Translations under genes and position numbers: made by a program
From: Clostridia bacterium
GTDB taxonomy: Bacteria; Bacillota; Clostridia; Oscillospirales; Feifaniaceae
Direction of reading: 5' to 3'
Assembly (NCBI GenBank): GCA_017427525.1
Contig: JAFRSP010000018.1
Coordinates: 1,684 to 65,683, forward strand
Length of the DNA stretch: 64,000 nucleotides
The notes under the pieces: model-generated
Told to the model about the DNA's origin: nothing
Seen by the model: the letters and a program-made list of their open reading frames with translations, nothing else
The model's database searches: none
Shown: piece after piece, positions 3,208 through 59,634 of the stretch
How positions within the stretch are numbered: position 1 is the first letter of the stretch
How the letters are laid out: every line of letters begins with the position of its first letter

Positions 3208-4803
3208 ATGAAACTGAGAAGAATCGTTGCTCTGCTTTTGGCTCTTCTTTTGCTCGCCGGCCTTTCCGCCTGCAGCAAGACTCAGGAGTCTGAACAAACA
3301 GCCGGCAAGGACAGTCTTGTCATCGCGGTCGGCTCTGAACCAGAAACTCTCGACCCCACCAAGGGCTGGGGACACGGAAACTCCCCCATTGTTCAGAGCA
3401 CACTGGTCAAATATACCGCACAGTTGAATTTCGAAAATGACCTCGCGACGGAGTACCACCTCTCTGACGACGGTCTCACCTGGACCTTTCTCCTCCGTGA
3501 CGACGCTTATTTTACCGACGGAGAAAAGGTCACGGCCTCCGACGTTGCCTTTACTCTTGAGACAGCAAAGGCAGCGCAGGGCTCCGTTGACCTCACCTAC
3601 ATGGAGCATGCAATCGCACAGGATGACAGAACCGTTGTGATCACGCTCTCCAAACCGACCTCCATCTTCCTCAATACCCTTGCCTCAGTCGGCATCGTTC
3701 CCCGTCATGCCTATGGGGAGGACTACGGGATGCACCCGATCGGCTCGGGTCCCTACCGATTCGTCGAATGGAAGCCACAGGAGCAGATCCTCTTTACCGC
3801 AAACGAAGATTATTATGGGCAGGTGCCTTCTATCAAAAACGTCACCGTCGTGTTCATGTCGGAAGATGCGGCGCTGGCCGCCGTGCAGGCGGGAGAGGTC
3901 GACGTGGCCTATTCCTCCGCCACGCTTGGAACCACGAAGGTGGACGGATATCATGTTGTGGCGATTCCCTCGGTTGACAACCGCGGGTTCACGCTGCCCA
4001 TGCTCCCAAATGAGGGGCAGACCACCGAAAGCGGCGCTCCGATCGGTAACGATGTGACCTGCAATCTCGAGGTGCGTCAGGCCATCGCCTGCGCTGTCGA
4101 CCGTCAACAGATCGTCGATTTTGTCCTGAACGGCTTTGGCCGCCCGGCCTATTCCGAAAACGACGGATTGCCGTGGAACAACCCAGAAGTGCAGATCGAG
4201 ACCGACGTGGAAGCCGCAAAGCAGCTGCTCTCTGACGCGGGATGGGCCGACACCGACGGGGACGGCATCCTGGAAAAAGACGGTGTGAAGGCCGAATTCA
4301 CCTGTATGTATCCCTCCGGAGACTCTGCACGGCAGGCCATTGCGATGGCCGCAGCTGAGCAGGTTGCAAAGATCGGCATTCAGATCAACGTGGAGGGCAC
4401 CGGCTGGGATGTGATCATGCAGCGCATGTTCTCCGAAGCCGTGCTGATGGGATGGGGCTCCTCGAGTCCAAACGAATCCTACTACCTTTATCGCTCCGAA
4501 GGCGCCCTGCTCGATGATTTTTACAATCCCGAAGGGTATCAAAGCGCAGTCACCGACGCGTATCTTCACGCCGCCATGGAGGCACTCACCGTGGAGGAAG
4601 CCAACGCCAACTGGCGAAATGCCCAGTGGAACGGTGTGACCGGCACCTCCATGAAGGGAGAATGCCCCTGGGTTTGGATCGTGAACCTCGATCATGTCAC
4701 CTATGTCCGCGACGGTCTTTCGATCGGGAATCAACCGATCCACGGGCACGGCCACGGATTCTCCCTGATTCAGAATCTGAATGAGTGGAGCTGGGCCGAA
4801 TAA
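3208..4803 (+). CDS. ABC transporter substrate-binding lipoprotein, family 5 (NikA/DppA/OppA-like); nickel specificity inferred from context
   Basis: Lipobox LLLAGLSAC, 531 aa, family-5 SBP-like sequence, first gene of a 5-gene ABC set directly downstream of larC. Confidence 0.75.
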   Translation: MKLRRIVALLLALLLLAGLSACSKTQESEQTAGKDSLVIAVGSEPETLDPTKGWGHGNSPIVQSTLVKYTAQLNFENDLATEYHLSDDGLTWTFLLRDDAYFTDGEKVTASDVAFTLETAKAAQGSVDLTYMEHAIAQDDRTVVITLSKPTSIFLNTLASVGIVPRHAYGEDYGMHPIGSGPYRFVEWKPQEQILFTANEDYYGQVPSIKNVTVVFMSEDAALAAVQAGEVDVAYSSATLGTTKVDGYHVVAIPSVDNRGFTLPMLPNEGQTTESGAPIGNDVTCNLEVRQAIACAVDRQQIVDFVLNGFGRPAYSENDGLPWNNPEVQIETDVEAAKQLLSDAGWADTDGDGILEKDGVKAEFTCMYPSGDSARQAIAMAAAEQVAKIGIQINVEGTGWDVIMQRMFSEAVLMGWGSSSPNESYYLYRSEGALLDDFYNPEGYQSAVTDAYLHAAMEALTVEEANANWRNAQWNGVTGTSMKGECPWVWIVNLDHVTYVRDGLSIGNQPIHGHGHGFSLIQNLNEWSWAE

Positions 4804-11663: not shown

Positions 11664-11734
11664 TCTTCTCTTTTGTTCTCCATTGCTTCGTTGAAAACCG
11701 GAGATCTTGAATCAACCCATCCCCAAACAGATTC

Positions 11735-11764
11735 GGGGCAGCTCTCTTTCCCGAGAGCTGCCCC
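11735..11764. terminator. Hairpin between convergent DUF4349 gene and thpR
   Basis: Perfect 12-bp stem GGGGCAGCTCTC / GAGAGCTGCCCC with a 6-nt loop. The flanking T/A tracts are short. Confidence 0.5.
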
Positions 11765-11873
11765 GATTTGTCGTTGAACCCCACCCGATGCGGTTCATCT
11801 CGCCGCAGGGACTTCGTCTCAAATTGCTCCTTCTTCGCCCATGCCTCTGCGGAGCCGTATTGCGAAGGGTATC

Positions 11874-26353: not shown

Positions 26354-26773
26354 CTACACCTTGCTGTTGGAAAGCGCCTCCAGCACATCTTCATCGGTTA
26401 CGCTGTTTTCAATCTTTTCCCAAGCCTCAAGATTCCAAACTTCCACGCGGGTTTCCACACCCACGAAGACGACTTCTTTTTTCAGGCCGGCCAAATTCCG
26501 CAGTTTGGCCGAAAGCAGCACGCGGTTTTGAGAGTCGGGCTGCAGCTCTTCCGCGAAACCGAAGAAGTAGCGCTGCATGGTCCGCCCTTCAGCGATAGGG
26601 GCCGATCGAATGATGGCCGAAAGTCGGTCCCACTCCTCAAGCGGATAGAGGCTGATGCAGCCGTCAAGTCCACGGGTGGCGACAAACCGCTCTCCCAGAT
26701 CCCTGCGGAAGCGCTGCGGAATAATCAGACGCCCCTTTTCATCCAAGCTGTGTTGAGTCTGGCCGATGAGCAT
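26354..26773 (-). CDS. mraZ: Transcriptional regulator MraZ
   Basis: Two SpoVT/AbrB-like halves (LDEKGRLIIP and DSQNRVLLSAKL). ATG at 26773 after AAAGGGGGA. Confidence 0.93.
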   Translation of the reverse strand: MLIGQTQHSLDEKGRLIIPQRFRRDLGERFVATRGLDGCISLYPLEEWDRLSAIIRSAPIAEGRTMQRYFFGFAEELQPDSQNRVLLSAKLRNLAGLKKEVVFVGVETRVEVWNLEAWEKIENSVTDEDVLEALSNSKV

Positions 26774-26860
26774 GGCTTGTCCCCCTTTCCGAGAATAAAA
26801 AGCGAAGGAAGATTCATAAGAAAAGAACATATGTATGTATTTTTATACTATACTCAAATT

Positions 26861-26900
26861 CTCCCTTATACTCCCTTTAGCTCCCTTTTGTCCCACTTGA
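26861..26900 (-). promoter_or_regulatory. Candidate MraZ operator: four helically phased GGGA(G) direct repeats
   Basis: Minus strand reads TCAAGTGGGA CAAAAGGGAG CTAAAGGGAG TATAAGGGAG. The spacing is 9-10 bp. The array lies immediately downstream of the predicted -10 and about 90 nt upstream of mraZ. Confidence 0.55.
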
Positions 26901-26904
26901 TACT

Positions 26905-26932
26905 AGTTTACCATAGATTTTTAAAATTGCAA
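26905..26932 (-). promoter_or_regulatory. dcw/mraZ promoter candidate
   Basis: Minus strand: TTGCAA (26932-26927), 16 nt, TGgTAAACT extended -10 (-10 hexamer at 26910-26905). Confidence 0.5.
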
Positions 26933-26997
26933 CAAGAAATTCTGCCGTTGACAACTTTTTTTCTTATTAAGCATGCTTTCCGATTTGCATGATTTTG

Positions 26998-27011
26998 CAT
27001 GAATATTCATG
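26998..27011. promoter_or_regulatory. Perfect 14-bp palindrome CATGAATATTCATG preceded by a TTTGCATGA direct repeat
   Basis: Read directly from the sequence: ATTTGCATGATTTTGCATGAATATTCATG (26983-27011) in the AT-rich region upstream of the mraZ promoter. Confidence 0.35.
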
Positions 27012-27131
27012 TATTTTTGTCCCTCACTTTCCCCCTTGTGGTTATTTCGGCGTGCGTTCTTCTTCCCATTCACGGAAGCACAGAAGCCCCGTAGGATTCT
27101 TTTCGTTGCTCCTTCGTTTGAGTTTTCCCCG

Positions 27132-27167
27132 AAAAAAAAAGAGCCCTCGACGGTATGTCGAGAGCCC
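27132..27167 (-). terminator. Rho-independent terminator of the rsmD-coaD-coiled-coil operon
   Basis: Minus strand: GGGCTCTCGAC-ATACC-GTCGAGGGCTC followed by T9. Confidence 0.7.
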
Positions 27168-49132: not shown

Positions 49133-51757
49133 TCACCCGTTCGGCCAGAGGCGCTTCGTATCCCCATAGGGCAGGGAGATGCGGTAAACCGTATATCGGT
49201 GACTGCTTCGCGCATCCGGCCAAGCAAGCGTCAGACTGTCGTTTGTGATCGACTGGAGAAATAGGCTGCGCCGCACCGTGGAGAAATCCTCTCCGGGGAG
49301 CGGGCAGAGGAAATGAAGAATGCCCTCCCGCTCACTCAGCCTGTAAATCCCCCGTACACCGTCGCGCTGCCCGACAAAATAGCAGGTCTGTCCCCTGCGT
49401 CCGATCAGAAAGGCGCGCTCCAGTATGGGGGAAAAGCCTGCGTCGGTCAGATAGCCAAGGCTACCCTCCCAACCGGAGGAGGCATATGCATAGTGCCAAG
49501 TCGTGACCAAAAACCCGTTTTTTCCTTCATCCAGCACCGTGATCTCCCCCATAGCATCCGGCATATCGAACAGGGTGACTCGCTCCTCCCCTTCTATGAC
49601 GGACAGCGTGATCCGATAGCGGTAGCCCGCGGTATTCTCCAATTTTTCCAAACGGCGCTCTTCGACCAGGGTTCGTCGGCTGTCTTCATAAAACACATGT
49701 TCCTCTACGCCGCCCGCCATCAGTTCGGTATAGCGCTTGGCAAGCGGGGCCGGTTCATAGCGGTAGGAAACGGGAGCCCACTCTGCCGCAGGCGGAAGTC
49801 CCGTGAAGGGATTCTGCTCTTCCGGACCGGCAGCGCAAAGACAGGAAGTTCCCTCTTCATCCTTTCCTTCATACACCGTGATCCGCAGGGAGAGATCGGC
49901 TGAACCAAGCGAATCGGTTTCTCCCCAGAGACATCCGGTTCCCTTTCCGGTTTCCCTCTGCGGCGTTGCCTTCACATTCAGAGCGAGCGTGAGATAGAAC
50001 TCTCCCTCCTCAAGAATCGAAACGCTGCCCAGACTGTAATCAAGCAGTCCCAGCGCATCGCCGCGATAGAGCAGATCTTTCAGCAAAGCGTCTGCGTAGG
50101 TCAGCGCCGCCTTCTCTCTGTCGCTTCCGATCGGCAAAACAGGGTAAAGTGCATAGGGCGGTGTGGGAACCTCCGCCACAGCCAGCTGACCGTCCCTCTG
50201 GGCAACCTGCACGACCGTGAAGAGCGGAGTGTCGCCGAAGAGGCGCTCGCCGGTGCTGTGCGGCAACAGATAGGCCGTTCCGGTAGAGGTGTCGGCCACA
50301 AGACAGCCCTCCTCCTGCCGTTCCAGCAGCAGAAGTCCTGCCCCGGAAAGTGCAAGCTGCGCGGCATTGTCGAGCACGGGACGCCGACTCTCCTCCAGGG
50401 CGTTCAGCAGAATGTATTCTCTCTCCCGGAGCCCGTACCAGCCGGGATTCTCCCCAAAGGGCGCCGAAAAAATCGCATCATACACAAAGGGCAGCTGCTC
50501 GTTTCCTTCAAGATCCACGGCGCCCCATAGTCCGTTTTTACGCACTACAAGGGCCCTTGTGTCCTCCGTCTCATACCAGAGAGTCAAGGAAGGCTGCTCT
50601 CCCGAGAGCGCTGCGGACCCATCTTCCGTCTGGTAGGTAAAATGCCCCACGTCCATATAGGCTCCGATCGCCTCATATTCATAGGGAAGACACATTTTCC
50701 CGCTTTTCAAATCCATGACGCCCCAAGCACCGTCTACTCTGCGCAGCGCGATGAGCATGTCTTCAATCAGCGCTGGGCCGCCGTCTTCCCCTCCGAAGCT
50801 ATAGCCGTGCCCCACCGCCAAACAATCCTGATCCGTCAGAGGGAGAATCCCCCCTTCCGAGGCCATCCAAAGACGCTGCATCCCGATCGGATCGGTCGTC
50901 ACCACCAAATCGGCGTCTGTTTCAGGGAACTCTATGGCTCGATACTGCGCGCTCAGCAGCAGCACGCCCTCTATGCTGTAGAGTCCCAAACTACCGTCCG
51001 GTCCCCGATAGAGATATCCATAGTGACAGGGCGTGAAGCTGCCCGGCATGCTTGGAAAAAGCGCGCCGGATTTCAGAGAAAACAGCGTCTGTCCCTGCTC
51101 GTCTTCTACCGGAAATGCGGGAGCGAACAGAAACGGCTCCTGCCTGACTGCCTCGCTCAGCAAGAACCCATATCCGTTCACGAGTGCGGCAATCGTCTCT
51201 TCGGCATAGTTCTTTGTCTGCAGCGCGAGCTTCATCCCTTCCTCTTCCCATTGGATGAAACAGCCAAAAAGCATCTGCGCGTTTTCCAGAGGAACCAGCA
51301 CCTCTCCCCCGCGCCGCAGCAGCGTTCCCTGTACGCGATTGTATAAGGGTTCTTCTCCAATCACGCAGATTTTTCCGCCTTCCTGAAGCCGCACAAGCTC
51401 CCTGCCTGCCGCGTCCGAAACCAAAAGAGAAAGCGCGCCGTTCTGCTCGGCCTGCGAAACCTCGATTTCCGGAAGCAGAGAATCCATCAGCGCCGCGTCG
51501 ACATAGAGGATGCCATCTTCCCGATACAGAAGACGCTCCGGCGCGGGAACCGGCTGCAGATCGATCGTGAGCTCCGGTTCCAGATACCCCGAGGAGGGTT
51601 GAACTTCCCTGAGCCACGGCATCACAAGGGCGGCAATCGCCGCTCCAACCGTTAAAACTGTTATAAACACCAACAGCCAACTTGGGATCGGTTCTCCTTT
51701 GAGTCTCTTTTTCTTCTGTTCCAAGCCAGGTTTCCCTCCTCTCACATGGTTTTTCAT
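49133..51757 (-). CDS. Large membrane-anchored WG-repeat (KWG-like) protein of unknown function
   Basis: N-terminal TM helix (WLLVFITVLTVGAAIAALV). WG-type repeats such as DGAWGVMDLKSGKMCLPYEYEAI and NGLWGAVDLEGNEQLPFVYDAI. Confidence 0.6.
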   Translation of the reverse strand: MKNHVRGGKPGLEQKKKRLKGEPIPSWLLVFITVLTVGAAIAALVMPWLREVQPSSGYLEPELTIDLQPVPAPERLLYREDGILYVDAALMDSLLPEIEVSQAEQNGALSLLVSDAAGRELVRLQEGGKICVIGEEPLYNRVQGTLLRRGGEVLVPLENAQMLFGCFIQWEEEGMKLALQTKNYAEETIAALVNGYGFLLSEAVRQEPFLFAPAFPVEDEQGQTLFSLKSGALFPSMPGSFTPCHYGYLYRGPDGSLGLYSIEGVLLLSAQYRAIEFPETDADLVVTTDPIGMQRLWMASEGGILPLTDQDCLAVGHGYSFGGEDGGPALIEDMLIALRRVDGAWGVMDLKSGKMCLPYEYEAIGAYMDVGHFTYQTEDGSAALSGEQPSLTLWYETEDTRALVVRKNGLWGAVDLEGNEQLPFVYDAIFSAPFGENPGWYGLREREYILLNALEESRRPVLDNAAQLALSGAGLLLLERQEEGCLVADTSTGTAYLLPHSTGERLFGDTPLFTVVQVAQRDGQLAVAEVPTPPYALYPVLPIGSDREKAALTYADALLKDLLYRGDALGLLDYSLGSVSILEEGEFYLTLALNVKATPQRETGKGTGCLWGETDSLGSADLSLRITVYEGKDEEGTSCLCAAGPEEQNPFTGLPPAAEWAPVSYRYEPAPLAKRYTELMAGGVEEHVFYEDSRRTLVEERRLEKLENTAGYRYRITLSVIEGEERVTLFDMPDAMGEITVLDEGKNGFLVTTWHYAYASSGWEGSLGYLTDAGFSPILERAFLIGRRGQTCYFVGQRDGVRGIYRLSEREGILHFLCPLPGEDFSTVRRSLFLQSITNDSLTLAWPDARSSHRYTVYRISLPYGDTKRLWPNG

Positions 51758-53114: not shown

Positions 53115-53585
53115 ATGGGCGAAAAGGTGTCGACCAAGACCATTGCACAAAACAAAAAAGCCTATCACGACTACTTTGTGGAAGAGCGCTTTGAAGCGGG
53201 CATCTCGCTTGCCGGAACCGAAGTGAAATCCTTGCGGGCCGGCAGAGTCAACCTGAAGGACTGCTTCTGCACCGTGGAAGACGGAGAACTGGTCGTCATC
53301 GGCATGCATATCAGCCCCTATGAACAGGGCAACATCTTCAATAAAGACCCGCTCCGCAAGCGTGTGCTGCTCATGCACAAACGCGAGATCATGCGGCTGT
53401 ATGGCCTGGTGAAGCAGGACGGCTACGCCATCATCCCGCTGTCGCTCTATTTCAAGGGCTCTCATGTCAAGGTCGAGCTCGGTCTGTGCAAGGGCAAGCG
53501 GCAGCATGACAAGCGCGAAGCCATGGCGCGGCGCGACGCAAAGCGCGAGATCGACCGTGCGATGAAGCAGCGCAACGTCCGCTGA
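53115..53585 (+). CDS. smpB: SsrA-binding protein SmpB
   Basis: [12 protein letters not shown]...GTEVKSLR...; C-terminal basic tail, 156 aa. Confidence 0.97.
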
Positions 53586-53662: not shown

Positions 53663-54009
53663 GGGGGTGCAATGGTTTCGACGGGGGTCTTGAAGCGGGA
53701 GAAGCAAGCCGAGTTGCGAGGACTCGTTAAACATCGCACCCTATAAATGAAAGAACAACGCTAACGTTGCTCTCGCGGCCTAACTAGGCCGCCGTCTGCC
53801 CTGGGAGGACCACGGCCCGGGTGTCAGGCGTCGTCAGTGGTGCACGTGAGGCGGGTAAGCTTTGCCCCGCCCATGAATCATGAAGCTACCGAATGGAGCA
53901 GCCGGCCGCCTGGCGGCTCAACTGGGGAATCTCAAATACGCGGCTAAGCTTGTAGAAACTCCCGTGAACGGGCTTTCGGACAGGAGTTCGATTCTCCTCA
54001 CCTCCACCA
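53663..54009 (+). ncRNA. ssrA: tmRNA (SsrA)
   Basis: 5' GGGGGTG pairs with 3' CACCTCC-A-CCA, including the G3.U alanine identity pair. T-arm is GGAG-TTCGATT-CTCC. Internal tag frame AAG AAC AAC GCT AAC GTT GCT CTC GCG GCC TAA (53751-53783) ends in ...NVALAA*. Lies directly downstream of smpB. Confidence 0.93.
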
Positions 54010-54018
54010 ATGCAAGAT

Positions 54019-54066
54019 AATCCGAACCTTAGGCCAATCGGCCAGGGGTTCGGATTTCTTGTTTTT
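54019..54066 (+). terminator. Terminator of ssrA
   Basis: AATCCGAACC (54019-28) / GGTTCGGATT (54047-56) followed by TCTTGTTTTT. Confidence 0.7.
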
Positions 54067-54203
54067 ATACGGGATATTACGTTATAGTTTTTGATTCGAT
54101 CAATATGAATTCAGACGGAATCGCCATGAAAAGCCGTATTGCCGCGATCCCGCATTGTTTAGATCGTCTCAACCTTTATGGCTTTTATGGTTTTTTGCAA
54201 AGA

Positions 54204-54233
54204 TTGACATGCATTGCCTTTTAAGGTTATGAT
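54204..54233 (+). promoter_or_regulatory. Strong sigma-A-type promoter for the 2-TM orphan gene
   Basis: TTGACA (54204-09), 18 nt, TATGAT (54228-33). Confidence 0.55.
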
Positions 54234-54278
54234 TCGAGCAGAAAAACATAACCATATTGTCTTAAAGAAGGTTCCGGG

Positions 54279-54995
54279 ATGAAATCAAAGATCACTTCGC
54301 CTAGATCAAAAAAACTATACACCGCCAACAATAAGATATATTGCGTTCTAGTCGTTTTATTAATTGTCGTTATCACGGTCATTTTGGCAATTGAAAACCG
54401 TTCGATAGTTTGGTCAGAAACGGCAAATTCCATCCTTACAGGTATTCTGAGTGGATTGTTGTCATCTGTTGTTGTTGCATGGTTTATTGATTTGGCAACC
54501 TGCAAAAGGAAAAATGATCATATTGAGCATCTGGTCAGTCGTGATCATGAGTCTTTAAAACTGTGGATCAATGACTTTTTTCAGTCAATGTCAAATTGTT
54601 TGCAACCCCAAAGCATTCAAACTTCCAGAAATATCGAATCTCTATACGATGAATTCGTGGAACAAATAGGCAGGGTCGATCATGCAAAGGTTTTGATCGG
54701 TGATGATGATTATTATAATGGTTTAGTTGGCCTATATGTGAGCATCAATCTTATTATTTCAACAGTTGATAAGCTTCTGTCGGGCGAAGAAAAGTCATAC
54801 ATGCTGCAAAAATACAGTGACCTCTCTTCTTTTTTAACCTTAAGCAAGTCGATGTCTGATTTGAGGGACAATCTTTTTAATAACGGAAACCACCGCTATG
54901 ATTTCATTTTTGTAGGCATATGTGATTTTCTTTCGACTATTCTGCCGTTTGCAGACTTTTTAAACAAGAAGTATTCCACTGCCAAACAGGAATAA
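54279..54995 (+). CDS. Orphan 2-TM membrane protein with a helical C-terminal domain (no recognisable family)
   Basis: Two N-terminal TM helices (about aa 20-38 and 51-72) followed by about 165 aa of predicted helices. Very low GC compared with the flanks. Confidence 0.6.
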   Translation: MKSKITSPRSKKLYTANNKIYCVLVVLLIVVITVILAIENRSIVWSETANSILTGILSGLLSSVVVAWFIDLATCKRKNDHIEHLVSRDHESLKLWINDFFQSMSNCLQPQSIQTSRNIESLYDEFVEQIGRVDHAKVLIGDDDYYNGLVGLYVSINLIISTVDKLLSGEEKSYMLQKYSDLSSFLTLSKSMSDLRDNLFNNGNHRYDFIFVGICDFLSTILPFADFLNKKYSTAKQE

Positions 54996-55081
54996 ATCCA
55001 TTGACAGGATTTCCTCCGATAAGGCGAACAACGGAAATGAACCCGTATCCATACCAACAGACAGCAGTTTCAATGCAACAA

Positions 55082-55121
55082 ACTCAGAGGCAAGGCATGC
55101 GCCTTGTCTCTGAGTTTTTCT
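55082..55121 (+). terminator. Rho-independent terminator insulating the 2-TM gene
   Basis: 15-bp stem ACTCAGAGGCAAGGC / GCCTTGTCTCTGAGT (one G.U pair), 4-nt loop, T5. Confidence 0.8.
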
Positions 55122-55238
55122 GTCGTCAACGGCATCTGACGTCTGATTCATCCAACGATTTCCATCTTCGTCCCATTTGTCCCTATCATTCTTTCACCCA
55201 TTCAATATGATGAAAGCAATGCCTCTCAGACAAAACGA

Positions 55239-55267
55239 TTGAAAAGACTTCTTTTCAATGCTATAGT
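55239..55267 (+). promoter_or_regulatory. Promoter for the Nudix-like/DpnI-like pair
   Basis: TTGAAA (55239-44), 17 nt, TGcTATAGT extended -10 (55262-67). Confidence 0.55.
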
Positions 55268-55305
55268 AGCATCAGAAGTTGCAGCGAAACAGAGGCCTGA
55301 CCGAT

Positions 55306-56661
55306 ATGCATAAGGCCGCGACGGGAGCGAATGTCATGACCCAATTTCAGTCTTGGATAGATGCCGTCAATGCCAACAACGGCGTGATTCAAATTGCCCT
55401 GACTGTTTTTCAGATCCTCATCACCTTTTTTGGATTTTTGCTGATCACTCGAAAGCAAATCCACAGGGACCGGTATGAGGAACGCCTCAATCAACTGAAA
55501 AAAACAGTAGACGCCCTGACCGTCAGCCGCAACGATTTTGCGGAAAGGGCGCTGGCACTGTATCGGGAGCATTTTCGCTCCGACCCCGATTGCAGCGAGT
55601 TTGTGGAGCATGGGCACCTGATCTATCGCAATGGCTGGGTCAACTGCAAGGATTCACAGGGGCGATTTTATCCCCTCTCCTCCTTCACCCCCAAGATCGC
55701 CTCCCGGTATACCCCGCCGGCGCCGAAAAAGAACCACACCCTTCCAGATCAGCAGGAAAGCTATGCCGATAACGTGAAGTTTTACCTGGGAAAGACCCTG
55801 ATGGATCTCCCGCTCTATGGGCTGAATGAGGTCCGCCTGCATCCCGACGAAATCGAAATCACGGTGAATTTGGGCTCCTATTTTGACTTTTACAACACCT
55901 GCGAATACAGGGGATATGAAATGGCCTATGCCCGCAGAATCCTGGGGAAAACGGCCGTTTCCGCCAAAACGCTTCCCGCGCGCTACGGCAAAAACAACGA
56001 GGGGCTGAATCTTTTCAACACTAGCAACCGCTTCCCCGGCATCGGCATCAACACCGTGACCATTTTGAAAAACGTGCTGGACGATCAGGAGCCTGACCGC
56101 GATCCGCCCATGCGCGACTTCTTCCTGATGCACAAACGCTCCAAACAGGTGGCCGAGGGAATCGGAAACTATCACGTGATACCCGCAGGTTCCTATCAGC
56201 CGCTGAAGGACTATCTGGACCACAGCGACGAAACCCGTGCGGAAACCATGAAGGATACCGTGCTGCGGGAATTCGGCGAAGAGATCAAGGACTATGAGGA
56301 ATTCATCGATCTAAACACCTCGCAGCTCCTGCAAAACCTGGATCGACTGCTCGACCCCTATTTTCTGGGCATCGGGTTTGAGCCGCTGAACACCAAGACG
56401 GAGGTTCTCTCTGCGCTGATTCTCGACCTGGAACAGCCGAAAATCCGCGCGCTGTTCCAAGGACAGCGTCACTATTCACAGCTCCAGACGCTGCTTGACC
56501 GAAACAACAATTACGAGGGAGAAATCCACCTCTGCCCGCTGAATTGCAGCACCCTTCGGCAATATGAAAACGACTTCCGTTCCACCGCTTCCATGAAGGA
56601 GATCATGCGGATTTTGCAGCTGGAGGAAAACCGTGCCTTTTTCCATGTGCAAAACATCTGA
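55306..56661 (+). CDS. Membrane-anchored protein with a C-terminal Nudix-fold-like domain carrying a degenerate Nudix box; function unknown
   Basis: One N-terminal TM helix (VIQIALTVFQILITFFGFLLIT). FLMHKRSKQ...YHVIPAGS...E-x7-REFGEEI (56188-56283) matches the E-x7-RE-U-x-EE core of the Nudix box, but there is an insertion after the Gly. Start is uncertain (TTG 55279, ATG 55306 or ATG 55336). Confidence 0.55.
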   Translation: MHKAATGANVMTQFQSWIDAVNANNGVIQIALTVFQILITFFGFLLITRKQIHRDRYEERLNQLKKTVDALTVSRNDFAERALALYREHFRSDPDCSEFVEHGHLIYRNGWVNCKDSQGRFYPLSSFTPKIASRYTPPAPKKNHTLPDQQESYADNVKFYLGKTLMDLPLYGLNEVRLHPDEIEITVNLGSYFDFYNTCEYRGYEMAYARRILGKTAVSAKTLPARYGKNNEGLNLFNTSNRFPGIGINTVTILKNVLDDQEPDRDPPMRDFFLMHKRSKQVAEGIGNYHVIPAGSYQPLKDYLDHSDETRAETMKDTVLREFGEEIKDYEEFIDLNTSQLLQNLDRLLDPYFLGIGFEPLNTKTEVLSALILDLEQPKIRALFQGQRHYSQLQTLLDRNNNYEGEIHLCPLNCSTLRQYENDFRSTASMKEIMRILQLEENRAFFHVQNI

Positions 56662-56786
56662 AACAGCTGCAGGCGACTGTGCCATTCTTTTAGAATCCGG
56701 ATCGTGTTTCCCTGTTGTCTTCTCCTTTTTGTCGGCAACGAGACTCTCGCGCTTCCTTTCGATTCTTTCGGTTTTAGGGGGCAGCT

Positions 56787-57558
56787 ATGAATTTACAAAT
56801 GGACTCCTCTTTAGCGGAAAAATACAACAGCGCTTCTCAAAAGGCCCGTATCGTAACCGAGTCCTAGGTAGCAGCGAACATGTTCTGTCCCCTGTGCGGG
56901 AATCTTCATATTTCGCATTTTGAGAATAACAGGCCAGTTGCAGATTACTTCTGTCCGCACTGCGGAAATCAGTTTGAACTCAAAAGCAAAAACGGCACGG
57001 CACTCAAAAAAATAGCGGACGGCGCTTACTCGACCATGATCGAAAGAATCACCAGTTTTGATCATCCGGACTTCTTGTTCATGTCATATACAAAATCTGA
57101 TTGGATTGTCCGAAACCTCTTTTTTTGTCCCCAAGCATTTCTTTACGCCTGATATCATCGAAAAGAGACCGCCTCTTCGCCCAACTGCAAGGAGGGCAGG
57201 ATGGATCGGTTGTAATATCAATCTAAGCCAAATACCCGCAACAGGAAGAATCCCCATCATCGAAAATGGGGTCAAAATTGATAAAACCATTGTGATAAAA
57301 CGGGCTTCCGCTGCAAATGCCTTGAATACTACGGATATCCTTGCGCGCGGTTGGCTGTTGGATACGTTGATGTGTGTTGAAAAAATCGGCAGGGTTTCTT
57401 TTGCATTATCTGAAGTATATGCATTTGAGGACGAGTTGGCTTTGAAACACCCTGACAATCATAACATAAGGGCAAAGATCAGGCAGCAACTCCAGGTTCT
57501 GAGAGACAGAGGGATCCTCGAGTTTACCGGTTTGGGAAAATACCGGAGGGTGCAATAA
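56787..57558 (+). pseudogene. DpnI / Dam-replacing-protein family methyl-directed (GmATC) restriction endonuclease, disrupted by an in-frame TAG (56865-56867) and a +1 frameshift in a T7 run (57120-57126)
   Basis: The reconstructed 256-aa product aligns end to end with my memory of S. pneumoniae DpnI (254 aa): SQKARI.TE, CP.CGN...HFENNRPVAD..C.HC...FELKSK, GAY.TM, RKPL.PTARRAGWIGCNI.LSQ.P..GRI and KIRQQLQ.LRD..I.EF.G.GKYR. Listed ORFs 56880..57152 and 57058..57558 are the two halves. Confidence 0.8.
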
Positions 57559-57583
57559 GAACAGCCTCCCTTTCCCTTTTTCA

Positions 57584-57625
57584 ACAAAAACAGCGTCTGC
57601 AAAAGCAGACGCTGTTCCTTTTTTG
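57584..57625. terminator. Bidirectional terminator between the DpnI-like gene and trkA
   Basis: ACAGCGTCTGC-AAAA-GCAGACGCTGT, with an A-rich 5' flank and TCCTTTTTTG 3' flank. Confidence 0.8.
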
Positions 57626-57633
57626 CAAACGCA

Positions 57634-58281
57634 TCAGGTATGGAAGCACTTTTGAATGGCCTTGAGGTCCCCCAAAACCAGGATGGTCTTGTCGCGGTCC
57701 AGCGCGGTCTCCGGCGTGATCGAAAGATTGACGGTTCCGTTCTCCTTCACCGCCATGATGTTGATTCCGAATTGCTTGCGGATATCGATCTGGCCCACTG
57801 TTTTGCCGACCCAGTCTTCGGGAATGGTGAGTTCAAAAATGGCGTGCTCCTCATCCAGCTTGATGTAGTCCAGAATATGGGTGGAGGAGTAGCAGATCGC
57901 AGCCCACTGCGCCATTTGCTTTTCGGGATTGATCACCTCGTCTGCACCGTTGCGCAGTAAAAACTTCGCCTGCACCTCGCGGTTGGCGCGGGATACCACA
58001 TAGCGTCCGCCGAGCTCCTTAAGCAGCGACGTGGTCTCGAGCGAGCTTTGGAATTCGTCTGCAATGGTGACGATGCAGACGTCAAAGCTGCTGATTCCCA
58101 GCGACTGCAGAAAGGTTTCGTTTGTACTGTCTCCGATCTGCGCATCCGTGACAAAGGGCAGGATGGCATTGATCCGATCTTCGTTTCTGTCGACCGCCAT
58201 AATCTGATGGCCGAGTTCGCTCAACTCCTTTGCAAGCATGAAGCCGAAATTGTCGAGACCGATTAACAGAATGGATTTCAT
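57634..58281 (-). CDS. trkA: TrkA/KtrA-type K+ uptake regulatory subunit (RCK_N + RCK_C)
   Basis: 215 aa with a Rossmann-like N-terminus (ILLIGLDNFG, where the second Gly of GxGxxG is replaced by Asp) and an RCK_C domain. Adjacent to trkH. Confidence 0.85.
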   Translation of the reverse strand: MKSILLIGLDNFGFMLAKELSELGHQIMAVDRNEDRINAILPFVTDAQIGDSTNETFLQSLGISSFDVCIVTIADEFQSSLETTSLLKELGGRYVVSRANREVQAKFLLRNGADEVINPEKQMAQWAAICYSSTHILDYIKLDEEHAIFELTIPEDWVGKTVGQIDIRKQFGINIMAVKENGTVNLSITPETALDRDKTILVLGDLKAIQKCFHT

Positions 58282-58299
58282 TGCTTTTCTCCTTTTTGA

Positions 58300-59634
58300 T
58301 TATCCGACAATGATCTTCTCTACAGGGCTCTGCGACACATCCACAACCCTGCTGGAAATTGCCGCGTACATCAGGGTCAGGCCGCCCACTCTTCCCCAGA
58401 ACATCAGAACGATCAAAATGGCGTGAGAGAAGACGCCCAGCGTGGGCGTGATGCCGAGGGTGAGTCCCACCGTTCCGATCGCAGACACCGTTTCAAAAAG
58501 ACACACACCGATCGGGAGCTGTTCCACGAGGCTGATCGCCATCGCGCTTATCCCGGGGAGGGTGAGATACAGCAACATCAGCGTGGCCGCGCTTCGAACC
58601 ACGCTGTCTTCAATCCGCCTGTCAAAGAGCTCCACATCCCTCTTGCGCCGAAACACAGAGTTCGCAGCGGCAACCAGCACGACCAGGGTCGTGGTTTTCA
58701 TGCCGCCCGCAGTGGACCCGGGCGAGCCGCCGATCAGCATCAGGATCGCAATACAGACATGTCCCACTCCGCCCATTGCGGACAGGTCGACCGTATTGAA
58801 TCCCGCGGTTCTCGGCGTGATCGCCTGAAACAGAGAAAGGCAGATTCTCTCCTTTATCGGCAGTGCAGAAAACTCCTCGAAGAAAAACAGCGCGGTCGGG
58901 ACTGCAATAAGAATTGCCGTGGCCGCCAGAATGGCCTTACTCTGCACACGATACTTTTTGAAGTGCAGTTTGTTTTCGCTGATATCGTCCCACGTGAGAA
59001 AGCCGATTCCTCCCACTACAATCAGCCCGCCGATAATCAGCACGATCCAGGGGTTGCCGCCATGGCCTGTCAGGGAAGTGAAGGCGCCGGTTTTTGTCCC
59101 CATCACGTCAAAGCCCGCATTGCAAAAGGCCGAGACCGAATGGAAAATGGCCATCCAAACGCCGGATATCCCATAGCTTTTACAGAAAATCGGCATCAGC
59201 AAAATGGCTCCGGCGAATTCAAAGGCAAACGCAATCTTAAATAAAAACCCTGTCATCGTAACGATCCCCCCGATGTGCGGGGCGGAAATGGCCTCCTGCA
59301 GCATGCTGCGCTGCAGAAGCGAAATATTCTTACCGGAGATCATGGCAATGAGAGCCGCAACCGACACCACACCGAGTCCTCCGATCTGGATCAAAACCAA
59401 TATGACCGCCTGCCCGAAGAAAGACCAGTAGGTAGCCGTATCCTTTACGATCAGCCCCGTCACGCAGACGGCCGAGGTCGCAGTGAAAAGCGCATCGTGG
59501 AAGGAGGCGGCTTCTCCCCCTGCGGAAGAGACGGGCAGCATGAGAAGCAGCGTGCCGATGAGGATCACGCCGACGAAGCCAAGGCTGACGATCTGCATGG
59601 ACGAGAGTTTTTTCCCAAAGAATCGCCCGTTCAT
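58300..59634 (-). CDS. trkH: TrkH/KtrB-family K+ transporter membrane subunit
   Basis: 444 aa, polytopic, with repeated MPM-like segments containing the selectivity Gly (...TAGFN..., ...GGSPGSTAGG.K). Confidence 0.88.
   Translation of the reverse strand: MNGRFFGKKLSSMQIVSLGFVGVILIGTLLLMLPVSSAGGEAASFHDALFTATSAVCVTGLIVKDTATYWSFFGQAVILVLIQIGGLGVVSVAALIAMISGKNISLLQRSMLQEAISAPHIGGIVTMTGFLFKIAFAFEFAGAILLMPIFCKSYGISGVWMAIFHSVSAFCNAGFDVMGTKTGAFTSLTGHGGNPWIVLIIGGLIVVGGIGFLTWDDISENKLHFKKYRVQSKAILAATAILIAVPTALFFFEEFSALPIKERICLSLFQAITPRTAGFNTVDLSAMGGVGHVCIAILMLIGGSPGSTAGGMKTTTLVVLVAAANSVFRRKRDVELFDRRIEDSVVRSAATLMLLYLTLPGISAMAISLVEQLPIGVCLFETVSAIGTVGLTLGITPTLGVFSHAILIVLMFWGRVGGLTLMYAAISSRVVDVSQSPVEKIIVG

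Follow-up and report, generated by a model that had tools for sequence, protein, structure and literature searches.

A strain-variable, integrase-less islet between ssrA and trkA holding a decayed DpnI gene, a candidate single-gene defence cassette and a NUDT22-like family member

Positions 54010–57625 of the window (the whole 64-kb stretch of Clostridia bacterium DNA analysed here) form an islet of three genes between ssrA, which encodes transfer-messenger RNA (tmRNA), and trkA. These are open reading frame 1 (ORF1), encoding a small membrane protein, ORF2, encoding a membrane-anchored Nudix-like protein, and a broken restriction gene of the DpnI family. Comparison of strains supports the site as a strain-variable, integrase-less defence hotspot at the tmRNA 3′ end, and the three genes are probably independent units with different histories rather than one system. 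What the window carries at this site is a dead DpnI gene, a new single-gene defence candidate (ORF1) and a member of a NUDT22-like family (ORF2). The features of the locus and its flanks are as follows.

53115–53585, plus strand: smpB, core left flank (Pfam SmpB, E 3.7e-63)
53663–54009, plus strand: ssrA (tmRNA), with its 3′ CCA end marking where the variable region starts on the left
54019–54067, plus strand: ssrA terminator hairpin and T-run (inverted repeat I2, arms 54019–54035 and 54040–54056)
54092–55218, plus strand: ORF1 cassette, a 1127-bp low-GC indel delimited by blastn breakpoints
54204–54233, plus strand: ORF1 promoter-like site, TTGACA-18-TATGAT, 11/12 consensus match
54279–54995, plus strand: ORF1, 238 aa, two N-terminal transmembrane (TM) helices and an all-helical domain
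55080–55123, plus strand: terminator-like hairpin 3′ of ORF1 (I1, 55080–55117, with 17-nt arms, 94% complementary, then TTTTT)
55239–55267, plus strand: ORF2 promoter-like site, TTGAAA-17-TG-TATAGT, extended −10
55306–56661, plus strand: ORF2, 451 aa from ATG, with an in-frame TTG at 55279
56787–57558, plus strand: pseudogene of a DpnI-type methyl-directed (type IIM) restriction endonuclease (Pfam DpnI, DpnI_C; PADLOC mREase_II)
56865–56867, plus strand: DpnI nonsense codon, TGG>TAG, W27*, by comparison with intact alleles
57120–57126, plus strand: DpnI +1 frameshift in a T7 run (T6 in intact alleles), by comparison with intact alleles
57589–57616, no strand assigned: bidirectional terminator between DpnI and trkA (I8, 12-bp stem), the right edge of the islet
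57634–59634, minus strand: trkA-trkH, core right flank (Pfam TrkA_N, TrkA_C; TrkH)

An earlier note, made by reading the letters of this DNA, had described the tmRNA, three ORFs and terminators, and this layout is present as it was drawn. The tmRNA was identified by ARAGORN and by Rfam (RF00023, 167.7 bits), and the two genes of the right flank are trkA (57634–58281) and trkH (58300–59634), both on the minus strand. The promoter-like sites are consensus matches only, and their regional total is not above that of shuffled sequence. ORF and repeat searches agree with the note on what the window lacks as well: no integrase or transposase ORF was found within the 64 kb, the 27-nt 3′ end of ssrA occurs a single time in the window with up to 3 mismatches allowed, and repeats of the attachment-site (att) type around the ORF1 cassette or the whole islet amount to 12–15-mers at chance level.

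Strains of the same species show four different states at this site. Searching public assemblies for the exact SmpB protein gave 19 contigs of the species, all with an identical copy, and we compared these contigs with the window by blastn. Going by the source names attached to related proteins, the species is an uncultured member of the Oscillospiraceae from the ruminant gut. L054 has the window arrangement and is 99.99% identical to the window. L055 (98.6% identical) carries ORF1, ORF2 and an intact 256-aa DpnI. In L059 and L061 (96–97% identical) ssrA is followed by ORF2 and an intact DpnI, without ORF1; the ssrA terminator region is common to these strains and the window up to position 54091, where homology breaks, and it restarts at 55219, with 46 unrelated bases between. 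Finally, homology of L056 and L057 (95.8% identical) ends at 54010, one base past the tmRNA CCA end, and the occupant after the tmRNA is a 441-aa ApeA_NTD1 and HEPN_Apea protein (35.5% GC) that matches the PADLOC models PDC-S58 and Cas13-ApeA. Exact look-ups of the TrkA protein returned the window-type arrangement only. The earlier note had put the islet forward as a possible defence locus and had proposed comparing the smpB–ssrA–trkA junction among relatives; run across strains, this comparison finds variable occupancy, with an ApeA (HEPN) alternative and DpnI intact elsewhere, and supports the proposal. Occupancy that varies from the ssrA 3′ end is a trait of tmRNA-associated islands, and two further such traits, an integrase and an ssrA repeat at the far border, are absent here.

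In L056 (GCA_017427125.1), an imperfect direct repeat of ~75 nt flanks the ApeA cassette on both sides (L056:10096–10175 and 11698–11775, ~85–90% identical). The tmRNA CCA end is where the first copy starts, and a different terminator hairpin lies 3′ of each copy. In the window no copy of this repeat was found. To judge from their sequence, the repeats look like att sites of a small integrase-less element that could be mobilised in trans, which hints at another way, besides homologous recombination, in which cassettes may reach the site.

Divergence and base composition differ among the genes of the islet. Between the window and L055, ORF1 (54279–54995 and L055:8423–9139, respectively) differs at 1/717 nt (0.14%), whereas smpB and its upstream flank differ by 2.6–3.6%, and this disparity suggests that the ORF1 cassette spread between strains very recently. 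ORF2 has 16 nucleotide differences between the same two strains and only 2 amino-acid differences, which points to purifying selection. GC content is 55.7% for the window, 36.5% for ORF1, 52.9% for ORF2 and 44.7% for DpnI, and GC at third codon positions is 0.39, 0.69 and 0.49 for the three genes (0.72–0.77 for trkA and smpB). The ORF1 cassette as a whole (54092–55218) has 38.7% GC. Only two stretches of the 64 kb fall below 42% GC in 300-nt segments, one of which is the ORF1 region; the second, at 26700–27150, is the intergenic leader upstream of mraZ-rsmH in the dcw cluster and is not an islet. All five hand counts of GC in the earlier note (19, 24, 33, 21 and 35 per 60) were exact on recounting. 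Its picture of a patchwork of foreign sources stands insofar as the mosaic is real and fails for the middle piece: the order is foreign, native-like, foreign, and the composition and codon usage of ORF2 are native.

Strain comparison indicates that the DpnI gene of the window is a genuine defence gene, apparently lost recently in this strain. The gene is split over two frames, and its fragments match DpnI (4.3e-34 and 2.4e-23) and DpnI_C (3.6e-29), with the N-terminal catalytic domain (PF06044) and the C-terminal winged-helix domain (PF17726) both present. The nonsense codon and the frameshift bear out the decayed endonuclease that had been read from the letters, and when both lesions are repaired in silico the result is a 256-aa ORF encoding the same protein as the intact allele. 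That 256-aa allele is found in L055, L059 and L061, and the L055 copy aligns end-to-end with PDB 4ESJ_A (E 1.7e-78, residues 2–254 against 5–256). The pseudogene recurs on at least six independent contigs (L054, L064–L069) and therefore does not stem from a read error. As a methyl-directed restriction enzyme, DpnI cuts Gm6ATC-methylated invader DNA on its own and needs no methylase. Like Streptococcus pneumoniae DpnI (PDB 4ESJ), the sister-strain allele stands alone, has both Pfam domains and matches over its full length; unlike it, the window copy is dead and has different neighbours. At the pneumococcal DpnI/DpnII site, strains carry alternative cassettes that are swapped via flanking homology. 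Here, in contrast, no DpnII-type alternative was seen, and the alternative occupant is ApeA.

ORF1 belongs to a very small family found beside defence genes. The protein has a K/R-rich N-terminus, hydrophobic helices at residues ~20–40 and 50–72 and an all-helical C-terminal domain of ~165 aa, and by the positive-inside rule both of its termini would be cytoplasmic. Invariant polar residues of the family include W68, D71, C75, R77 and N79 and the motif FNNGN..YDFI..G..DFLST. ORF1 has no family match in Pfam, PADLOC, NCBIfam or PHROG; its best Pfam match is PIG-Y (E 0.0038, on a TM helix), and no family reaches threshold, SLATT and abortive-infection (Abi) membrane models included. Neither ORF1 nor ORF2 matches any PADLOC-DB v2.0.0 family at E ≤ 1. 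A profile search raised the family from 9 to 17 proteins among 5.8 billion clusters, a scan of JGI metagenomes found no further ORF1-family context, and no relatives were found in the 2.9 million viral contigs of IMG/VR. A phage origin of the ORF1 and ORF2 families was considered and rejected, since neither has relatives in IMG/VR and BFVD returned only generic Nudix proteins.

The earlier note had asked where homologues of its orphan genes reside, and for ORF1 the answer is defence islands. One homologue lies directly after an AAA_13 ATPase matching PDC-S06, LmuB and PrrC, beside three large serine recombinases. Another shares its island with ISL3, group-II-intron fragments, Vsr/MutH/Dcm and a McrB-like AAA_5 protein, and a third directly follows a Mokosh MkoA helicase (E 7.8e-117), near SRA_ScoMcrA, at an island edge by comEC. 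Further homologues are found inside a type I restriction-modification (R-M) operon, between a TIR protein (PDC-S35) and hsdR, and with Eco57I/XhoI on one side and an Mrr-like protein on the other, close to a SEFIR/TIR gene. In all, 6/6 independent interpretable contexts are defensive (L007, L050–53, L070, L071/L076, L072–74 and the window hotspot); L077, which is too short and unannotated, was excluded from the count. On this basis we take ORF1 as a stand-alone defence candidate, and a membrane-acting defence protein of the abortive-infection or exclusion type is the account we somewhat favour, with its mode of action inferred from architecture only. Like ApeA, which occupies the same chromosomal site in other strains, and like single-gene Abi determinants, ORF1 is small, low in GC, self-contained and located in defence islands; unlike ApeA, it is a membrane protein without HEPN, recognisable domain or predicted enzymatic motif. 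The homologue in the R-M operon (L076:4926–5606, on the same contig as L071) has been called as a truncated 182-aa product. Upstream of the called product the frame stays open across both TM helices and offers no ATG, GTG or TTG as a start, and at its 3′ end the gene shares 8 nt with the start of hsdR.

Structure prediction places ORF2 in the Nudix superfamily, with human NUDT22 as its closest structural relative. An alignment-based AlphaFold2 (AF2) model of good quality (predicted local distance difference test (pLDDT) 89.5, predicted template-modelling score (pTM) 0.86) starts with an N-terminal helix, continues as a long helical stalk as far as residue ~110 and ends in a two-domain alpha/beta body. 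In a Foldseek search of the PDB, human NUDT22 was the best match (E 2e-10, target TM-score 0.63–0.66 over ~345 columns), five orders of magnitude better than other Nudix structures; further matches include NUDT9, the NUDT9-H domain of TRPM2, NUDT16/TIRR, X29 and NUDT5, and all listed PDB matches at E ≤ 0.001 are Nudix-family proteins. Matches in BFVD were generic viral Nudix proteins only. The TM-anchored Nudix-like protein of the earlier note is thus borne out by model and fold search. Sequence searches gave little: ORF2 has no match to Pfam NUDIX (PF00293), NCBIfam or PHROG and only a sub-threshold match to DUF6261, and in a profile search of PDB sequences NUDT22 was absent at E ≤ 1 and NUDT9 gave a marginal match at the Nudix box. 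The Nudix assignment is therefore provable by structure only.

The catalytic motif is nearly universal in the ORF2 family. The Nudix box has R-E-x2-E-E as its catalytic core, which in ORF2 reads REFGEE (R330, E331, E334 and E335 in the 460-aa numbering), is invariant in a 36-sequence alignment and is present in 198/210 relatives. Upstream of it lies a conserved H.RS..VAEG....H.IPAGSYQP block. Relative to the full box GX5EX7REUXEEXGU, the E-x7-RE portion is present, the G-x5-E portion is displaced, with PAG ~26 residues upstream, and the window protein does not conserve the final GU. The stretch that follows the TM helix is strongly basic (TRKQIHRDRYEERLNQLKK), suggesting a membrane-tethered protein whose catalytic body faces the cytoplasm. 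An exhaustive profile search found at least 1,810 clusters (50% identity) at E ≤ 1e-3 and 394 at E ≤ 1e-30, spanning Clostridia, Bacilli, Mollicutes, Proteobacteria, Actinobacteria, Cyanobacteria, Bacteroidota and Archaea, and none of the relatives was in IMG/VR viral contigs. In the literature we searched, neither a NUDT22-like family with TM, TIR or HD fusions nor ORF1 is described.

Human NUDT22 is a UDP-glucose/UDP-galactose hydrolase (PDB 5LF9, 5LOR, 5R50). ORF2 shares with it a two-domain architecture of pre-Nudix and Nudix domains, coverage of its 282–291-residue chains and an atypical box, and differs in sequence (15–16% identity) and in adding an N-terminal membrane anchor and a long helical stalk. 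NUDT22 is itself an outlier without a conventional Nudix box (PMC5688067). One sampled relative, P0066, is a 366-aa “rRNA small-subunit methyltransferase A” with an ORF2-family segment. It is probably a chimeric gene call rather than a fusion, since KsgA, HAD and Nudix genes adjoin in L013, L014 and L016.

Homologues of ORF2 reside among housekeeping genes. In three species of related Oscillospiraceae the order is KsgA, HAD, the ORF2 homologue and PEPCK, in two species it is DHDPS, DUF218, the homologue and DUF169, and elsewhere iPGM lies upstream in one case and LysR downstream in two. On long contigs (including L078 and L080) the homologue sits among PGM and oligopeptide ABC genes or FakA, RecG and HTS. 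Its identity is similar to that of its neighbours (75% versus 62–91%, and 70.5% versus 68–90%). Among 122 neighbours at 38 ORF2-family loci, HAD, ferredoxin, DAHP synthase, LysR, PEPCK and iPGM dominate, and PADLOC matches are a scattered handful. An operon partner for ORF2 was sought by all-against-all clustering of 45 loci and dropped, as no conserved neighbour gene emerged. The earlier note had suggested that ORF2 may be part of a defence module; housekeeping synteny of homologues, which it had named as counting against that idea, is what we find, along with native codon usage, and homologues do not recurrently reside in defence islands. In one related genus (L004–6) the homologue lies 3.9 kb downstream of ssrA, and in four other lineages it does not. 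The L004 tmRNA (3761–4121) was missed by ARAGORN and found by Rfam (129.7 bits), and the ORF2 homologue is on the same strand.

Two further neighbour genes were seen at ORF2-family loci. In three unrelated Proteobacteria, a homologous ~340-aa protein is encoded directly after the ORF2-family gene (L035:4738–5778, L038:10891–11916, L046:10969–11982). It has weak similarity to phosphatases of the inositol-monophosphatase/CysQ type, and HAD phosphatases recur by Clostridial members, which may hint at a pathway of pyrophosphatase followed by phosphatase around the family. In one Oscillospiraceae clade, a 511–571-aa protein without a Pfam match is encoded directly upstream of the homologue (L020:8331–9878, L021:144–1679, L025:5235–6950); between L020 and L025 this protein is 74% identical and the Nudix gene 53%.

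Exchange of N-terminal domains suggests that the ORF2 family is a module for handling nucleotides that serves both in physiology and in conflict systems. The N-terminal helix is present in ~70% of sampled members. In others it is replaced by TIR_2 (P0062, P0132), HD-CE (P0117, P0157), NTase-conflict (P0215), trypsin (L041), DUF4062 (L031) or HTH_3 (L044), or else by a soluble domain of ~100–130 aa without a Pfam match. The catalytic motif is kept throughout, so the module is probably an enzyme in all architectures. A constant module with a swappable output is a pattern typical of immune sensors. Like the NUDT9-H domain of TRPM2 and like NrtR, an ADP-ribose (ADPR) sensor (PMC9503650), the family joins a Nudix-type module to varied outputs (a membrane segment, an HTH domain); unlike them, it retains catalytic REx2EE in nearly all members and has a single membrane helix rather than a channel. 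A second resemblance is to single-protein or two-gene signalling defences, namely the TM-Macro ThsA of type II Thoeris and the TM effectors of CBASS and Pycsar, in which an N-terminal TM segment precedes a nucleotide-binding domain, and a TIR domain takes the place of the TM segment in related proteins. Unlike in those systems, however, the islet has no ThsB TIR, CD-NTase or cyclase and none is conserved by relatives, the sole exception being L001, where TIR genes lie next to a TIR-fused member.

Neither assembly error nor joint function of the genes accounts well for the locus. All comparison sequences are metagenome-assembled genomes or metagenome contigs and one DpnI lesion lies in a homopolymer run, as would be expected if the variability were an artefact of assembly or binning and the lesions were sequencing errors. 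We consider this extremely improbable, given that the states recur in independent samples or assemblies (L059 and L061; L056 and L057; L054 and L065–L069), that the breakpoints are sharply defined and coincide with the tmRNA CCA end or with intergenic DNA, and that two independent lesions are seen in at least six contigs. Also very unlikely is the suggestion of the earlier note that ORF1 and ORF2, with or without DpnI, form one undescribed defence or abortive-infection module. The two genes lie side by side on one strand within a variable defence hotspot, and both products are membrane-anchored. However, L059 and L061 retain ORF2 and DpnI without ORF1, which lies on an indel of its own (1127 bp) together with a promoter-like site and a terminator; ORF2 has a promoter-like site in DNA common to the strains without ORF1; and the two genes differ strongly in GC content and divergence. 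Nor do the families co-occur elsewhere, which the earlier note had proposed as a check: tblastn found no ORF1 relative in 48 ORF2-family loci, no ORF2 relative in 10 ORF1-family loci and DpnI in neither set.

Different roles for the individual genes can also be weighed. ORF1 might be non-defence mobile cargo (a membrane toxin, an immunity protein or the remnant of a degraded element), in keeping with its very small family, its lack of homology to known defence proteins, weak sub-threshold matches to membrane models of the bacteriocin-immunity and type VI secretion system kinds, and the homologue beside three serine recombinases. We regard this as unlikely: recognised defence genes lie within a few kb in every one of the six independent contexts with identifiable neighbours, one copy is embedded in a type I R-M operon where it overlaps the hsdR start, viral contigs hold no relatives, and no toxin or bacteriocin partner gene was seen. 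For ORF2, the analogies with TM-Macro ThsA and NUDT9H-gated TRPM2 raise the idea of an immune protein whose Nudix module would bind and hydrolyse an infection-linked nucleotide (ADP-ribose or a derivative) and control the swappable N-terminal output, here a membrane helix that would oligomerise and damage the membrane. The conflict-type N-termini on the same C-terminal module, the TIR-fused member beside CAP12-PCTIR TIR genes and a nucleoside hydrolase, the lack of a conserved partner gene (the protein would act alone), the position in a defence hotspot in this species and the structural matches to NUDT9 and TRPM2-NUDT9H all fit it. Yet the TM-type members of Clostridia are syntenic among housekeeping genes and conserved about like their neighbours, few of the neighbours match PADLOC models, the composition is native, a catalytic motif in every architecture fits an enzyme as well as a sensor, and a single TM helix is a weak pore candidate. 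We regard this mechanism as improbable, and for the window protein itself an autonomous immune role is likewise unlikely. Our reading of the window gene, at about an even chance, is that of a resident, membrane-tethered pyrophosphatase of nucleoside diphosphates linked to a moiety X (NDP-X) with a physiological function.

Taking the islet as three independent units, we propose that 54010–57625 is probably an integrase-less gene-exchange hotspot between ssrA and trkA. Its content would probably be swapped, after DNA uptake, by homologous recombination via the conserved ssrA and ORF2/trkA flanks. With no recombinase present, homologous recombination is the simplest route we can infer, and classic alternative-cassette loci exchange by recombination through their flanks. 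The hotspot cassettes would have landed next to ORF2, presumably a long-resident gene under purifying selection encoding a NUDT22-like Nudix pyrophosphatase at the inner face of the membrane, which would hydrolyse NDP-X there (a nucleotide-sugar or a molecule of the ADP-ribose type). ORF1 would have come on a recently acquired 1.13-kb low-GC cassette as a stand-alone abortive-infection or exclusion protein, and DpnI, intact in sister strains, would have been inactivated recently in the window strain.

Several points weigh against these proposals. The contig of the ApeA strain stops before showing whether ORF2 and DpnI are retained there. The ORF1 family is tiny, only six or seven contexts underlie the defence reading, and the AF2 model of ORF1 was of low quality (pLDDT 51.7 from a 9-sequence alignment) and unfit for a fold search. 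For ORF2, the view of a resident enzyme is weakened by the location of the gene inside a defence hotspot and by the replacement of the N-terminal helix by conflict-type domains in some relatives, among them the TIR-fused P0062 (L001) beside two CAP12-PCTIR TIR genes with a nucleoside hydrolase adjoining.

Two observations concern the left flank. The tmRNA tag reported by ARAGORN (window 53751–53783) is ERTTLTLLSRPN, and the adjacent frame reads KNNANVALAA (AAG AAC AAC GCT AAC GTT GCT CTC GCG GCC TAA). The latter has the canonical ALAA ending, so the reported tag frame is probably off by one. Just upstream of the smpB region, on the minus strand at 49133–51757, is an 874-aa protein (863 aa in public records) with no Pfam family on record that is conserved across all strains of the species.

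Together, the strains provide a natural experiment with four allelic states at one chromosomal site of one gut species, and they show how small defence cassettes can come, go and replace one another beside ssrA in the absence of an integrase. The 1.13-kb ORF1 cassette, with its own promoter-like site and terminator, is a compact candidate for a new single-gene defence. Through ORF2 a large Nudix family without annotation comes into view, structurally closest to human NUDT22, itself poorly understood, and this family with its domain swaps is the part likeliest to repay further work. If its module senses or removes molecules of the ADP-ribose type, the family is relevant to the arms race over NAD+/ADPR in which bacteria and phages are engaged. 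It is a speculative prospect, and in our judgement an unlikely one, that the ORF2 family is a new sensor-hydrolase module with interchangeable outputs and that ORF1 is at the same time the founder of a single-gene, membrane-acting Abi family. If true, the ORF2 family would be a prokaryotic counterpart of ADPR-gated TRPM2 and would give the orphan human enzyme NUDT22 its first functional context.

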